Assembly: GCF_002925905.1 (NCBI RefSeq)
Contig: NZ_PRDB01000022.1
Span: 7,033-39,032 of the forward strand
Length of the DNA stretch: 32,000 bases
Reading direction: 5' to 3'
Origin: Klebsiella michiganensis
Lineage (GTDB): Bacteria > Pseudomonadota > Gammaproteobacteria > Enterobacterales > Enterobacteriaceae
The notes under the pieces are model-generated. The model ran no database searches. It was not told where the DNA came from and was given only the letters and a program-made list of their open reading frames with translations. Of the stretch, positions 9,348 to 17,975 are shown piece by piece; position 1 is the stretch's first letter, and the number at the start of each line of letters is the position of its first letter. The position numbers and the translations under genes are program-made.

Positions 9348-9381
9348 AGTGCGCATAATGTGATCAGGGATTATGTAAAAA
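9348..9381 (+). other. dif-like site (prophage attL): XerC-type arm AGTGCGCATAA, 12-nt spacer TGTGATCAGGGA, XerD-type arm TTATGTAAAAA
   Basis: Direct comparison with dif (GGTGCGCATAA TGTATA TTATGTTAAAT) at 20155-20182. Confidence 0.75.
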
Positions 9382-9413
9382 ACACGCCTGCTAAAATACG
9401 GCCGCAGGCGTGT

Positions 9414-9441
9414 CTTTTGCATAATCCCCATTATGCGCAAC
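9414..9441 (-). other. second dif-like site in inverted orientation: GTTGCGCATAA TGGGGA TTATGCAAAAG (read on minus strand)
   Basis: The reverse complement of 9414-9441 was compared with dif. It is separated from the first site by a perfect 10-bp stem ACACGCCTGC (9382-9391) / GCAGGCGTGT (9404-9413) with a 12-nt loop. Confidence 0.75.
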
Positions 9442-9577
9442 TGCATTATCCTGAGAATATTTTTCCTCGGTCAATTTTTTTCGAGGACAGATCGTGGTAG
9501 AAAAAATATATAGCACGAATTGCCAACCCTGAAAAAAACACTTTTACATTATTATCAATTTAGCAAAAAGTGCTTTT

Positions 9578-9682
9578 CTTCCCACTACAGCACATCATTT
9601 TTTATTTTTTACCCTCAATTCTGTGGTCATTTATTCATTATTTCCCCACTACAGCACATGTACTTCCCACTACAGCACATCA
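9578..9682 (+). repeat. three direct copies of CCCACTACAGCACAT (9581-9595, 9645-9659, 9666-9680); copies 1 and 3 are identical over 20 nt (CTTCCCACTACAGCACATCA)
   Basis: Read directly from the sequence. The spacings are 64 and 21 bp, in the AT-rich region upstream of the phage genes. They look like iterons or operators. Confidence 0.8.
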
Positions 9683-9705
9683 AAAGCCTATCTGGTTCAT
9701 AATAT

Positions 9706-9735
9706 TTGACTCTGCCGCCAATGTGGATATATATA
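9706..9735 (+). promoter_or_regulatory. candidate sigma70 promoter for the phage operon
   Basis: TTGACT (9706-9711), an 18-nt spacer, then TATATA (9730-9735). It lies just downstream of the repeats and ~125 nt upstream of the first phage ORF. Confidence 0.3.
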
Positions 9736-9859
9736 ACTTATTGAATTAAATCGATTTTAAATTTTTTGTGTTTGTCAATATATTGGCTTGTTTTTTATTT
9801 ATTGAATTGGTTGTTACTTTTTGATCTACTCCAATTATTGATTTTTGGGGAGTGTTCAG

Positions 9860-14989: not shown

Positions 14990-16161
14990 AAAAAACTATT
15001 ATCCTTTCGTCAATGCTGCTGTTCCCCTTTTTTGCTGATGCTGCGGGTTCAGGGGTAGATTTCGAACTCAAATCGACACCAGTGCCTGATGCTCTGAGCG
15101 TTTTTTATACGCAAATTCTGAAAAAGCCTTTTCGTTTGTCTCCCGATGTCGTGGCAATGACTAACAAAAATATTTCTTTTCACCTGATGCCAGAGCAGGA
15201 TGCTAGAAAATTTTTTATTGATTACATGGCTGATATCGGCGTTCGATCTAAAACAAAAAATGGTGTCGATTTCTACTATGTTCCCTCTCAATCAGCAGAA
15301 AAAACAGTTTTGCCGAAATTCAGTTACACCTATAAACCGCTGTACCGGTCTGTCGATTATCTGGCATCACAGATGCAATCATTAGCCAGTGACGGTGGTC
15401 AGTTCTCTGGAGGTGGTGAGAAAACGGCTGCTGACATGTTGGTTTTTTACGGTACAAAATCTGAGATTAGACGTGTTTCTGAGGCGCTGCCATTGGTAGA
15501 TATTCCGGCTGATGAGGTTCTGGTGTCCGGTTATGTTTATGAGGTCCAGAGTACGTCGAAAACGGGTTCAGGTCTGCAACTGGCTGTTAATTTATTGAAT
15601 TCAAAACTAAATTTACAGATTGGTGGCAGTTCAGCGAGAGGGTATGACAATTTTCTGAAAATAGGCACCGGCTCTCTGAGTGCATTGGTTGAACTGTTTA
15701 ACACGGATTCGAGATTTACGACGGTTTCGGCACCGACATTGCGGGCGCGTTCTGGTTCTCAGGCTGAATTTTCGGTTGGTAGTTCAACTCCTACGCTGGG
15801 AACTGTTAGTTATCAGGGGCAATCGGCTGTACAGTCTGTGAACTATAAAGACTCTGGGATTATTTTTAAAATTTTGCCGGAGGTTCGTTTTAGTGTGATT
15901 GACCTGAATCTGTCTCAGGAATTATCCAATTTTACCACTACTGATAATGGCGTTAACGAGTCACCAACACTGATTAAACGGGCAATTTCTACTGACATTT
16001 CACTGAGAGATGGGGATATTATTCTGATTGGTGGTCTGGCCGATAACAAAAATACTGATACTAAGACGGGGTTTTCGTTGTTTCCGTTTTTGACCAGCAA
16101 GGGTAGCGATTCAACAAAAACGGATATTGTTATTGTTTTACAGGTGCGAAAAATCCGGTGA
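14986..16161 (+). CDS. phage secretin (pIV family)
   Basis: ATGA overlap with pI. It has a signal peptide and a C-terminal secretin domain pattern (VSAPTLRARSGSQAEFSVG...GDIILIGGLADNK...FSLFPFL). Confidence 0.8.
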   Translation: MKKTIILSSMLLFPFFADAAGSGVDFELKSTPVPDALSVFYTQILKKPFRLSPDVVAMTNKNISFHLMPEQDARKFFIDYMADIGVRSKTKNGVDFYYVPSQSAEKTVLPKFSYTYKPLYRSVDYLASQMQSLASDGGQFSGGGEKTAADMLVFYGTKSEIRRVSEALPLVDIPADEVLVSGYVYEVQSTSKTGSGLQLAVNLLNSKLNLQIGGSSARGYDNFLKIGTGSLSALVELFNTDSRFTTVSAPTLRARSGSQAEFSVGSSTPTLGTVSYQGQSAVQSVNYKDSGIIFKILPEVRFSVIDLNLSQELSNFTTTDNGVNESPTLIKRAISTDISLRDGDIILIGGLADNKNTDTKTGFSLFPFLTSKGSDSTKTDIVIVLQVRKIR

Positions 16162-16202
16162 CGCGCTCACCGCAGCGCGGGCGAGGAGGGCGCGTCACCG
16201 GA
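16154..16202 (+). terminator. long hairpin spanning the secretin stop codon
   Basis: TCCGGTGACGCGC / GCGCGTCACCGGA 13-bp perfect stem with a 23-nt loop, followed by TTT. It could be a terminator or part of the phage intergenic structure. Confidence 0.4.
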
Positions 16203-16363
16203 TTTGGAGAACCGTATAATAATTTACGTTTCTGTTTATTGCCTGTATGGCTCAACCAGAACATTATAGATAAAACGCCGGTCAGTGCCAGAATTCATTC
16301 TGGTGCTGTCCGGGGTTGGCCGAGCGTAGCGCTGGCAAAACATTTTTATGAGGGGACTAGGCT

Positions 16364-16594
16364 GTGCAGCAGTTTTCAAAAGTCGAGGTTTTTTCTCTGT
16401 CCGCCAAAATCTGCGATCGTTGCGGGCGTCGGGCTGAACTGGCGACCTCTGAATTTCAGGAGTTTCTGTCTGTAGACCGCGTTGCAGGTTATGGATCGGT
16501 TTTTGGTGACGGAGAGTGTCTGAGGCTGGATTTGTGTCAGCATTGCACAAAAACACTTTTGGGAGCGTGGATTCAATCAGGCAAAATTGCCTGA
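16364..16594 (+). CDS. phage small CxxC...CxxC (zinc-ribbon-like) protein
   Basis: GTG start, 76 aa, with CDRCG and CQHC pairs. The stop is embedded in the perfect palindrome AATCAGGCAA-AA-TTGCCTGATT (16575-16596). Confidence 0.4.
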   Translation: MQQFSKVEVFSLSAKICDRCGRRAELATSEFQEFLSVDRVAGYGSVFGDGECLRLDLCQHCTKTLLGAWIQSGKIA

Positions 16595-16666
16595 TTGGGT
16601 GAACGACCCTGAGTTAGACGGGCTCAGGAAAACGAATTCATTTTGCGGTAGTTTGCCGCAATCAGG

Positions 16667-17723
16667 GGCTTTGTTGAATAAATCGAACTTTTGCTGAGTT
16701 GAAGGATCAGATCACGCATCTTCCCGACAACGCAGACCGTTCCGTGGCAAAGCAAAAGTTCAAAATCACCAACTGGCCCACCTACAATAAAGCCCTCATC
16801 AACCGTGGCTCCATAACTTTCTGGCTGGATGATGAAGCTATTCAGGCCTGGTATGAGTCGGCAACGCCTTCATCACGGGGAAGACCTCAGCGCTATTCTG
16901 ATCTCGCCATCACCACCGTTCTGGTCATTAAACGCGTGTTCAGGTTGACCCTGCGGGCTGCACAGGGTTTTATTGATTCCATTTTTACACTGATGAATGT
17001 TCCGTTGCGCTGCCCGGATTACACCAGTGTCAGCAAGCGCGCAAAGTCGGTTAATGTCAGTTTCAAAACGTTCACCCGGGGTGAAATCGCGCATCTGGTG
17101 ATTGATTCCACCGGGCTGAAGGTCTTTGGTGAAGGCGAATGGAAAGTCAAAAAACACGGCAAAGAACGCCGTCGTATATGGCGAAAGTTGCATCTGGCAG
17201 TTGACAGCAACACACATGAAATCATCTGTGCAGACCTGTCGCTGAACAATGTGACGGACTCAGAAGCCTTCCCGGGTCTTATCCGGCAGACTCACAGAAA
17301 AATCAGGGCAGCATCGGCAGACGGCGCTTACGACACCCGGCTCTGTCATGATGAACTGCGGCGTAAGAAAATCAGCGCGCTTATCCCACCCCGAAAAGGC
17401 GCGGGTTACTGGCCCGGTGAATATGCAGACCGTAACCGTGCAGTGGCTAATCAGCGAATGACCGGGAGTAATGCGCGGTGGAAATGGACAACAGATTACA
17501 ACCGTCGCTCGATAGCGGAAACGGCGATGTACCGGGTAAAACAGCTGTTCGGGGGTTCACTGACGCTGCGTGACTACGATGGTCAGGTTGCGGAGGCTAT
17601 GGCCCTGGTACGAGCGCTGAACAAAATGACGAAAGCAGGTATGCCTGAAAGCGTGCGTATTGCCTGAAAACACAACCCGCTACGGGGGAGACTTACCCGA
17701 AATCTGATTTATTCAACAAAGCC
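16667..17723 (+). mobile_element. IS903 (IS5 family), complete 1057-bp copy
   Basis: The termini are GGCTTTGTTGAATAAATCG ... TGATTTATTCAACAAAGCC. The 9-bp direct duplication GCAATCAGG is at 16658-16666 and 17724-17732. Confidence 0.95.
16744..17667 (+). CDS. IS903 transposase (307 aa, GTG start)
   Basis: VAKQKFKITNWPTYNKALINRGS... matches the IS903 transposase as I remember it. The TTG start at 16699 in the ORF track is probably too long. Confidence 0.9.
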   Translation: MAKQKFKITNWPTYNKALINRGSITFWLDDEAIQAWYESATPSSRGRPQRYSDLAITTVLVIKRVFRLTLRAAQGFIDSIFTLMNVPLRCPDYTSVSKRAKSVNVSFKTFTRGEIAHLVIDSTGLKVFGEGEWKVKKHGKERRRIWRKLHLAVDSNTHEIICADLSLNNVTDSEAFPGLIRQTHRKIRAASADGAYDTRLCHDELRRKKISALIPPRKGAGYWPGEYADRNRAVANQRMTGSNARWKWTTDYNRRSIAETAMYRVKQLFGGSLTLRDYDGQVAEAMALVRALNKMTKAGMPESVRIA

Positions 17724-17975
17724 GCAATCAGGTTATGAGCCGTCGCGCTACCGCAAAAATTCTACGTCCCATGTCATCGCAGTTCGGAACCGCTCAGCAT
17801 AAATCGTTCACAAATCCATTATAGTGTGGCGTTGCAAGGAGAAAAAGTGTTTTGCTGTGTCTGTCGACTTTTGTCAAAGCTCAATTGAAATGTCCTTTAT
17901 CCGGCTCAATTAAAATGTCCACTTTGATCTCAGATTCTCTTTGCTGATAGACTTTCCTTCGACTGAAACAACAGG

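Follow-up and report, generated by a model that had tools for sequence, protein, structure and literature searches.

How does a phage that brings no recombinase come to lie exactly at the dif site of a bacterial chromosome, and how is it kept quiet there? The question is raised by a stretch of 32,000 nucleotides (nt) of Klebsiella michiganensis DNA (assembly GCF_002925905.1, contig NZ_PRDB01000022.1, positions 7,033–39,032; hereafter the window, in whose coordinates positions are given), in which an inovirus prophage occupies positions 9348–17871 and measures 7,458 bp after removal of a copy of IS903B. We classify it as an IMEX, an integrative mobile element that exploits Xer, because it encodes no recombinase. 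By analogy with CTXφ, we regard it as highly probable that this prophage is a CTX-type IMEX that entered the chromosomal dif through host XerC acting on a folded, single-stranded form of its attachment site, attP(+). It is a Klebsiella member, not previously described, of the Ypfφ/CUS-1-like clade of CTX-type IMEX, and not a new kind of system; no published description of the Klebsiella prophage was found in the searchable literature.

Insertion at the chromosomal dif site

The attachment sites, the right end of the phage and the insertion sequences (IS) in and beside it are as follows.

9348–9381, + strand: attL, a hybrid dif-like site (site 1) made of the host XerC arm AGTGCGCATAA and TGT, phage GATCAGGGA and an XerD-like arm TTATGTAAAAA, with a 12-nt spacer overall
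9367–9428, + strand: inner stem of the attP hairpin (25 bp, 92% complementary) with a 12-nt loop, from an inverted-repeat search and DNA folds
9414–9441, − strand: inverted dif-like site 2, GTTGCGCATAA TGGGGA TTATGCAAAAG, with a 6-nt spacer; predicted pairing partner of site 1 in single-stranded DNA (ssDNA)
16667–17723, + strand: IS903B (IS5 family), not phage, in the phage noncoding region, with a 9-bp target duplication GCAATCAGG at 16658–16666 and 17724–17732
17733–17871, + strand: right end of the phage, noncoding, ending in ...GTCGACTTT; IS-free copies (L008, L014) run from ...GTCGACTTT directly into GGTGCGCATAA
17872–20149, − strand: ISKpn21 (IS1202 family), not phage, exactly 2,278 bp with TGT...ACA ends
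17976–18620, + strand: DUF6904 passenger gene of ISKpn21
18649–20052, − strand: ISKpn21 transposase, 467 amino acids (aa)
20155–20182, + strand: attR, a reconstituted perfect dif of the 28-bp E. coli type, GGTGCGCATAA TGTATA TTATGTTAAAT

An initial annotation, made from the sequence alone, had placed a dif-like site at 9348 and a perfect dif on the right, and both are present; a perfect dif such as that at 20155–20182 was expected in none of 100 shuffles. The annotation's end coordinate, 17871, is exact in that this is the final phage base and ISKpn21 begins at the next, although the span it delimits contains the foreign IS903B. The G+C content of the prophage is 41–48%, versus 55–60% in the right flank.

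The site can also be seen without the phage. Using the AraC protein encoded in the right flank, we retrieved phage-free sister chromosomes (~6 Mb), among them CP044109, which is K. michiganensis FDAARGOS_647 (PMC12670165). In L019, L021, L024 and L025 (L numbers designate the loci compared), the empty site AGTGCGCATAATGTATATTATGTTAAAT joins the left flank of the window straight to its right flank. L025 is colinear with the window up to position 9361, with 100% identity in the final 725 bp, and colinearity resumes at 20150, with 99.1% identity across 7.2 kb. The insert, of 10,807 bp, is accounted for exactly to the base by 7,458 bp of phage, 1,066 bp of IS903B with its duplication, and 2,283 bp of ISKpn21 with its duplication. 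In the complete genomes L020, L022, and L025, the locus lies at 48–50% of the chromosome, a position consistent with the replication terminus, provided that the records begin near oriC. The annotation had read the element as an IMEX at dif with a CTX-like attachment region, into which IS elements came later, and the empty dif locus and the IS-free copies agree with that reading.

No recombinase was called between the housekeeping flanks in ten sister Klebsiella loci, and Pfam scans of the phage open reading frames (ORFs), sense and eight antisense, found no recombinase, transposase, or helix-turn-helix (HTH) domain, as the annotation had maintained. The prophage thus lacks a recombinase of its own, lies exactly at dif, and has dif regenerated on one side, as is characteristic of a CTX-type IMEX.

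Both IS903B and ISKpn21 arrived after the phage, and ISKpn21 parted the prophage from dif. A metagenomic sister locus (L015) is 99.98–100% identical to the window and lacks IS903B. ISKpn21 is flanked by a 5-bp duplication, ACTTT, at 17867–17871 and 20150–20154, the latter abutting the XerC arm GGTGCGCATAA. ISKpn21 has been described as a member of the IS1202 family whose insertions lie 5 bp away from dif, on its XerC side, in a fixed orientation (PMC10132070; bioRxiv 10.1101/2022.12.17.520857), and the copy in the window, 5 bp from the XerC arm, agrees with the published description. We considered the 214-aa ORF at 17976–18620 as possible phage cargo and rejected it, as it is the DUF6904 passenger of ISKpn21. 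A degraded relative of ISKpn21 lies to the left of the prophage (~8579–9342), abutting the older dif arm at attL; it predates the phage, because it is also found at empty sites. In one empty-site chromosome (L025, reverse complement, 5080–5513), 434 bp of this degraded element, corresponding to window positions 8637–9070, are present in tandem once more than in the window. Insertions of dif-targeted IS elements and phage integration are stacked in succession at the terminus in the window and in L009, L015, L016, and L022.

The predicted fold of the attachment site and the position of the crossover

We rebuilt the circular attP in silico by placing the phage's right end, and after it the attR arm, ahead of the left end. 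As ssDNA, the (+) strand of this sequence is predicted to fold at −35.6 kcal/mol (z = −8.8), and none of 200 shuffled sequences folded as well. The predicted structure consists of a paired XerC arm, a 6-nt bulge (TGATCA), a paired XerD arm with an extension, and a 12-nt loop. The same succession of stem, 5′ bulge, stem, and loop is predicted in fifteen relatives. Because the extension stems of these relatives differ in sequence yet fold alike, the pairing has been kept by compensatory change. A bulged-hairpin attP(+) of this architecture has been described for CTXφ (PMC4246890). In the window, the remainder of site 1, the loop, and site 2 all lie at the left end of the prophage, as in CTX-type elements.

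A polymorphism between the host and phage XerC arms maps the crossover. The empty site reads AGTGCGCATAATGTATA..., attL reads AGTGCGCATAATGT joined to GATCAGGG, and attR reads ...CTTT joined to GGTGCGCATAATGTATA, so that the A-variant of the arm is present at the empty site and at attL and the G-variant at attR. The same A/G pattern was found in 10/10 sister prophages, which we had recovered with the ssDNA-binding (G5P) protein and which have at least four different left flanks. As the A-arm occurs at the empty site and attL and the G-arm at attR, the crossover took place within GTGCGCATAATGT, which spans the XerC cleavage position. The G-variant arm at attR would then be phage-derived, and the sequences point to site 1 of the coding (+) strand as the exchanged strand. 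An asymmetry between host and phage arms was also observed in Haemophilus prophages.

We propose, by analogy with CTXφ, that the packaged (+) single strand folds at the attachment region, where the dif-like site with a 12-nt spacer would pair with the inverted dif-like site with a 6-nt spacer ~40 nt downstream. The pairing would yield a duplex comprising a paired XerC arm, the 6-nt bulge TGATCA, and a paired XerD arm. Host XerC would swap one pair of strands between this hairpin and dif, and replication would fix the product. The left flank of the prophage would then consist of the host XerC arm followed by phage DNA, and on the right, a phage-derived XerC arm with the host central region and XerD arm would regenerate a working dif. 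The reaction would be irreversible because both halves of attP would then lie as ordinary duplex DNA. Integration of the CTX type is known to require XerC only, to be resolved by replication, and to be irreversible, and phage production from it needs rolling-circle replication (PMC4246890). In the Klebsiella phage, replication would proceed through an RstA-like initiator of the Rep_trans type together with an ssDNA-binding protein resembling gene V, and pI/Zot would assemble virions that leave through a pIV secretin encoded by the phage itself. The present copy, which is single, was later hit by IS903B and parted from dif by the dif-targeting ISKpn21.

The junctions also bear on whether the phage could instead be a VGJφ-type IMEX, whose double-stranded replicative form recombines with dif at a single duplex site, XerC first, in a reversible reaction in which excision regenerates the phage. 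Every junction that we saw uses site 1, whose 12-nt spacer is ill-suited to duplex XerCD binding, even though the TGT at the XerC side of the dif central region is also present in site 1. Site 2, which has a 6-nt spacer and good XerC and XerD arms, would be competent as a duplex, but no junction is formed at site 2 in the window copy, in those of ten sister loci, in the single IMG/VR provirus, or in five copies from metagenomes. VGJ-type phages likewise carry RstA-like Reps, and two of them, VSKK and fs1, are among the best matches to the Rep of the prophage; a duplex mechanism, however, needs neither the inverted partner nor the bulged hairpin, both of which are conserved with compensatory changes. 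The finding of no excised or circular junctions in IMG/VR and the JGI metagenomes also counts against reversibility, as consistent but weak evidence for an irreversible reaction. Taken together, these observations make a VGJφ-type origin highly improbable. Two further routes were rejected: integration via duplex site 2, as no such junction occurs in any copy, and TLC-type (XerD-first) integration, as the expected junction of GTTGCGCATAATGGGGA with TTATGTTAAAT is absent.

Several points nevertheless weigh against entry by XerC on folded attP(+). Xer dependence, an ssDNA substrate, and virion production are argued from analogy. The A/G asymmetry argues for the position of the crossover but is by itself no proof of it, and the G-variant dif is also found in phage-free chromosomes (L016–L018, L020, L022). 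The junction expected of a circular or tandem form, ...GTCGACTTT-GGTGCGCATAATGT-GATCAGGG (right end, G-arm, and GATCAGGG), was not found in IMG/VR or the JGI metagenomes. The part of the proposal that concerns lysogeny control is speculative, and ORF1, a Cys-rich 57-aa ORF, or a zinc-ribbon protein could be an unrecognised regulator.

The phage-free sisters carry either the A-variant XerC arm (L019, L021, L024, L025) or the G-variant, with different left flanks. The G-variant dif in these chromosomes could be the scar of a past integration followed by loss of the phage, or it could be plain polymorphism.

Gene content and relatives

The phage genes all lie on the + strand between 9845 and 16594, in the order ORF1, Rep_trans, G5P, small ORFs, coat, pIII, pVI, Zot/pI, and pIV secretin.

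9578–9682, + strand: three 20-nt direct repeats CTTCCCACTACAGCACATCA in the AT-rich region 5′ of ORF1/rep; candidate iterons of an origin or operator
9845–10084, + strand: ORF1, a small, very acidic protein of 73–79 aa depending on start choice; overlaps the start of rep and is called as 73–76 aa in 10/10 sister loci
10056–11063, + strand: rolling-circle initiator of the Rep_trans/RstA type (Pfam PF02486, 1.6e-20)
11089–11397, + strand: ssDNA-binding protein, gene V-like (PF17426 Putative_G5P, 3.8e-19)
11366–11503, + strand: doubtful 45-aa ORF that overlaps the 57-aa ORF
11500–11673, + strand: small Cys-rich ORF of 57 aa, called as 57–59 aa in sister loci
11674–11874, + strand: small hydrophobic ORF of 66 aa, called in L015; no family match
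11871–11987, + strand: hydrophobic ORF of 38 aa, candidate minor coat protein (pVII/pIX-like; phrog_3679, 6e-6)
12028–12246, + strand: major coat protein, pVIII-like (phrog_2186 "virion structural protein", 1.2e-15)
12262–12283, + strand: G+C-rich hairpin 3′ of the coat gene (8-bp stem, 6 G-C pairs)
12296–12373, + strand: hydrophobic ORF of 25 aa, read from the sequence, whose stop overlaps the pIII start (ATGA at 12370)
12370–13629, + strand: pIII-like adsorption protein (phrog_3942, 2.7e-71)
13636–13923, + strand: pVI-like minor coat protein (PF10734 DUF2523, 1.5e-12)
13916–14989, + strand: pI/Zot assembly ATPase (PF05707, 8.5e-24; Walker A GVPGSGKS); its true start may be the ATG at 13934
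14986–16161, + strand: pIV-type secretin, the outer-membrane export channel (PF00263, 2.2e-20)
16151–16205, + strand: hairpin with 21-bp arms across the secretin stop (inverted-repeat search); probable terminator
16364–16594, + strand: four-Cys zinc-ribbon protein of 76 aa (phrog_5435, 6.4e-26; 80 homologues)

This content is that of an inovirus: a pI/Zot ATPase, a coat protein with pIII- and pVI-like proteins, a Rep with an ssDNA-binding protein, and a compact, co-directional genome of 7,458 bp (~5–12 kb is expected). ORF listing and profile searches recovered every ORF of the initial annotation, on the + strand and in the order it had given. The profile matches that it had proposed as a check on the Rep, Zot, and secretin assignments were obtained (E values above), and family matches support its description of an inovirus prophage with Ff-type morphogenesis order and a secretin of its own. 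The three ATGA overlaps that it reported are also present: at 11871 (the start of the 38-aa ORF, within the 66-aa ORF that ends at 11874), at 12370 (where the 25-aa ORF falls below the cut-off of the ORF listing), and at 14986 (Zot ends at 14989, with the secretin ATG at 14986). So are the hairpins claimed after the coat gene and in the region past the secretin; in a terminator scan of the latter, the 6-bp apical core was matched, on the − strand only. The claim of an Ff/IKe layout holds for the order of the morphogenesis genes but not for the replication module, which is of the RstA/Rep_trans type.

The best phage matches of Rep are those of the Vibrio phages KSF1, fs1, and VSKK (33–34% identity), and records of the CTXφ group match too. 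The protein also matches the Rep in PDB 4CIJ (1.6e-5) and is 28% identical to the Rep of Xenorhabdus relatives. The coat sequence has a signal peptide, an acidic N terminus, a hydrophobic core, and a basic C terminus, and the pIII-like protein has a signal peptide, a Gly/Ser/Thr-rich linker, and a C-terminal anchor. The secretin matches GspD (2e-13) and f1 pIV (7OFH, 4.7e-10) in the PDB; its identity is ~25% to f1/M13 pIV and 43–48% to relatives other than Ypfφ. Among the four small ORFs at 11366–11987, only the 38-aa ORF has a PHROG match; its homologues are 34% (Ypfφ) and 42% (L005) identical. ORF1 and the Cys-rich 57-aa ORF have no match in Pfam, PHROGs, or NCBIfam. The zinc-ribbon gene is kept 3′ of the secretin gene across the phage clade and occupies the same position in Providencia and Salmonella prophages. 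An AlphaFold (AF2) model of its product is confident, with a predicted local distance difference test score of 91, and comparison of the model with the PDB gave no significant fold match, the best being uninformative matches to generic ribosomal proteins (E = 0.03, TM score ~0.46).

Of the systems already described, Ypfφ and CUS-1 are most like the Klebsiella phage. Ypfφ integrates at dif, carries an inverted XerC/XerD pair "similarly to CTXφ", forms tandem arrays, and has a secretion module (YPO2279-2280), and CUS-1 is its 99% identical, dif-integrating twin in E. coli (PMC4266046); Ypfφ and CUS-1φ are listed as CTX-type (PMC4246890). Like the Klebsiella phage, both are integrated at dif without an integrase, with an inverted pair of sites on the left and a reconstituted dif on the right, and both have the same morphogenesis order, their own Zot and secretin, and small accessory ORFs between the secretin gene and attP. 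At the Y. pestis locus L050 (Ypfφ, an 8,742-bp repeat), attL is GCACATAA, and the tandem junction and attR are GCGCATAA, the same asymmetry as in Klebsiella. Identities between the Klebsiella phage and Ypfφ are 40% for G5P, 46% for the pIII C terminus, 44% for pVI, 45% for Zot, and 41% for pIV. The two differ in replication and control. The Ypfφ initiator is an Ff-type gpII (Phage_CRI and G2P_X_C, 1e-73), to which the Rep_trans/RstA-type initiator of the Klebsiella phage has no detectable similarity. Three divergent ORFs near attL of Ypfφ, including an HTH_3 RstR-like gene (1.6e-9), have no counterpart in the Klebsiella phage. Ypfφ is 8.7 kb long and usually tandem, whereas the Klebsiella phage is 7.46 kb and single in every copy seen. 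Membership of the Ypfφ/CUS-1 group therefore extends to the shared morphogenesis and secretion module, not to gpII or the divergent RstR-like repressor.

CTXφ resembles the Klebsiella phage in having two inverted dif-like sites with a long and a short spacer, a bulged (+)-strand hairpin (predicted here), an XerC-side crossover, restoration of dif at one end, the lack of any recombinase gene, and an RstA-family initiator. CTXφ has no secretin and relies on that of its host; unlike the Klebsiella phage, it carries ctxAB and the repressor RstR. The comparison covered Rep and its best Vibrio-phage matches, to which it is only ~33% identical. For CTXφ, Xer dependence rests on experiment; for the Klebsiella phage, we infer it.

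UPφ901 is an IKe-like phage that has all core genes and a dif site and integrates at dif, also as tandems (PMC7307601). It and other Lineavirus-like phages of E. coli, Salmonella, and K. pneumoniae share with the Klebsiella phage the Ff/IKe core set in canonical order and dif. However, UPφ structural genes are ~70% identical to those of IKe/I2-2, versus ~25% identity between the Klebsiella secretin and f1 pIV, and genes II and V of UPφ are Ypfφ-like, whereas the Klebsiella Rep is RstA-like. With Rep_trans in place of gpII, this distant secretin, and no DNA match, the Klebsiella phage falls outside Ff/Lineavirus (M13, IKe, UPφ). Of 5,426 E. coli genomes searched, none gave a DNA match resembling UPφ. 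A DNA search against known phages, E. coli genomes, and plasmids matched only IS903, 62 bp of dif flank, and a 93% identical plasmid fragment of the phage 3′ end, on which ground we rejected identity with UPφ or CUS-1 at the DNA level. The initial annotation had implied that an Ff-like morphogenesis module joined to CTX-like integration was new; the combination is already known, because Ypfφ/CUS-1 and UPφ (UPφ901) were described with it.

We scanned GTDB representative genomes with the secretin profile and obtained 32 loci, in Haemophilus, Rodentibacter, Xenorhabdus, Photorhabdus, Arsenophonus, Kluyvera, Lelliottia, and Erwinia as well as Yersinia pestis. Most of them have a + strand site with a 10–12-nt spacer, an inverted site with a 5–7-nt spacer, and a dif with a 6-nt spacer at the right end; where no sites were detected, the contig is mostly short or truncated. 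The prophage is in tandem in L027, L039, L041, L050, and L067. The nearest phage records are circular inoviruses from saliva (Inovirus D_HF5_61, OR148978, and Dulem virus 52/53; Zot 42–45% and secretin 43–45% identical), in which a site with a 12-nt spacer and an inverted site with a 6–7-nt spacer, with arms of the TTCGCATAA type, lie between the secretin gene and rep. These and the Haemophilus, Xenorhabdus, and Providencia prophages share the gene order and the paired attP, with arms that match the dif of their own hosts; they differ from the Klebsiella phage in host and in dif arm sequence, and some carry divergent small ORFs that it lacks.

A comparison of the initiators of L050, L064, L065, and L066/L067 with that of the window (10056–11063) found three types in the clade: Rep_trans (Klebsiella, Xenorhabdus, and one Providencia), Phage_CRI (Ypfφ and Salmonella), and Phage_GPA (another Providencia). 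Replication modules have evidently been swapped wholesale around a constant chassis of attP and morphogenesis genes.

Activity, control of lysogeny and the biology of dif

The prophage is common in Klebsiella: in the assembly collection, 622 indexed blocks contain the exact ssDNA-binding protein, and the genomes are of ~5.3 Mb and ~6 Mb. The copies examined for activity were all integrated. IMG/VR yielded a single match, an integrated provirus, and the JGI metagenomes yielded five copies, all integrated with the A-arm, and no match to the G-arm junction. With no such junction, circular or tandem, in either collection, it is unproven that the Klebsiella lineage has been active recently.

It could be argued that Klebsiella acquired the phage a single time in the distant past and now passes on, by vertical descent, a decaying or domesticated remnant whose attP-like structure has lost its function. 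The window copy stands alone, contains IS903B, and has ISKpn21 between itself and dif, but its ORFs are all full length and match those of IS-free sister copies. Some sister copies are damaged, with Zot or the secretin split in L009, L012, and L013; 3′-end fragments persist on K. pneumoniae plasmids; and no episomal or tandem form was detected in IMG/VR or the JGI metagenomes. A single ancient entry, on the other hand, does not sit well with a prophage found behind at least four left flanks and seven right flanks in genomes of both sizes, or with two attP-loop variants and mosaics of 89–94% identity, which fit recurrent integration or continuing exchange; there are also sister chromosomes that lack the phage and have an intact site. 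We consider an inactive fossil very unlikely, and whether or not the present copy is dead, its mode of arrival would be unchanged.

A search for a hidden repressor with Pfam, PHROGs, and NCBIfam on all small and antisense ORFs found none. With low confidence, we infer that the phage has no dedicated repressor and that quiescence is not achieved by immunity of the CI/RstR type. Three other factors may contribute, each put forward with similarly low confidence: a single CTX-type prophage may yield no circular genomes, tandem copies being needed for rolling-circle read-out; control may be post-transcriptional, of the gene V type; and the host may silence the AT-rich phage DNA. A bolder proposal, tentative and in our view rather unlikely, is that this CTX-type IMEX lineage keeps lysogeny without an RstR/CI-like repressor either because an orphan protein is a new inovirus regulator or because single-copy, irreversible integration is itself the "off" state and tandem formation the switch. 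Candidates for such a regulator are the acidic ORF1 that overlaps rep, the Cys-rich ORF of 57 aa, and the 76-aa zinc-ribbon protein found across the clade.

Pieces of the locus are also found elsewhere. Part of the phage 3′ end (window 16049–16666) is present, at 93% identity, on K. pneumoniae plasmids (L002 5001–6173 on IncFIB NZ_CP143916, and six or more besides). This fragment takes in the final ~110 bp of the secretin gene together with the hairpin of that gene and the zinc-ribbon gene. It is broken by an insert of ~530 bp that contains a small ORF in antisense, and its borders are formed by a LysR gene and an IS903-like element. Among the sister chromosomes of K. michiganensis, L016–L019 have aph(3′)-Ia beside the chromosomal dif, with 97.4–100% amino acid identity. 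The E. coli plasmid p88_1577-3 (L001 3042–4076) carries 1,180 bp of this aph(3′)-Ia/dif region at 99.8% identity, dif included; at L001 4049–4110, a LexA-box-like palindrome, TACTGTATATGTATACAGT, directly adjoins the captured dif, and the 5′ end of a group II intron (ltrA) comes after it. The window lacks aph(3′)-Ia and keeps both flanking segments (1485–1614 and 9234–9361). We considered a location beside dif as a new origin for aph(3′)-Ia and dismissed it as not new, the K. michiganensis origin of aphA1 having already been published (PMC12670165).

The accepted view of how such elements work is unchanged by these results. The dif site emerges as crowded, shared by the phage, by dif-targeting IS elements, and, in sister strains, by the aphA1 progenitor region. 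The loci compared provide a natural reaction series, from empty dif to prophage, to prophage with ISKpn21, and to prophage with ISKpn21 and IS903B. Beyond Vibrio and Yersinia, the sequence evidence for integration of the CTX type, which consists of the architecture of attP and where the crossover lies, now extends to Klebsiella, Haemophilus, Xenorhabdus, and other genera.

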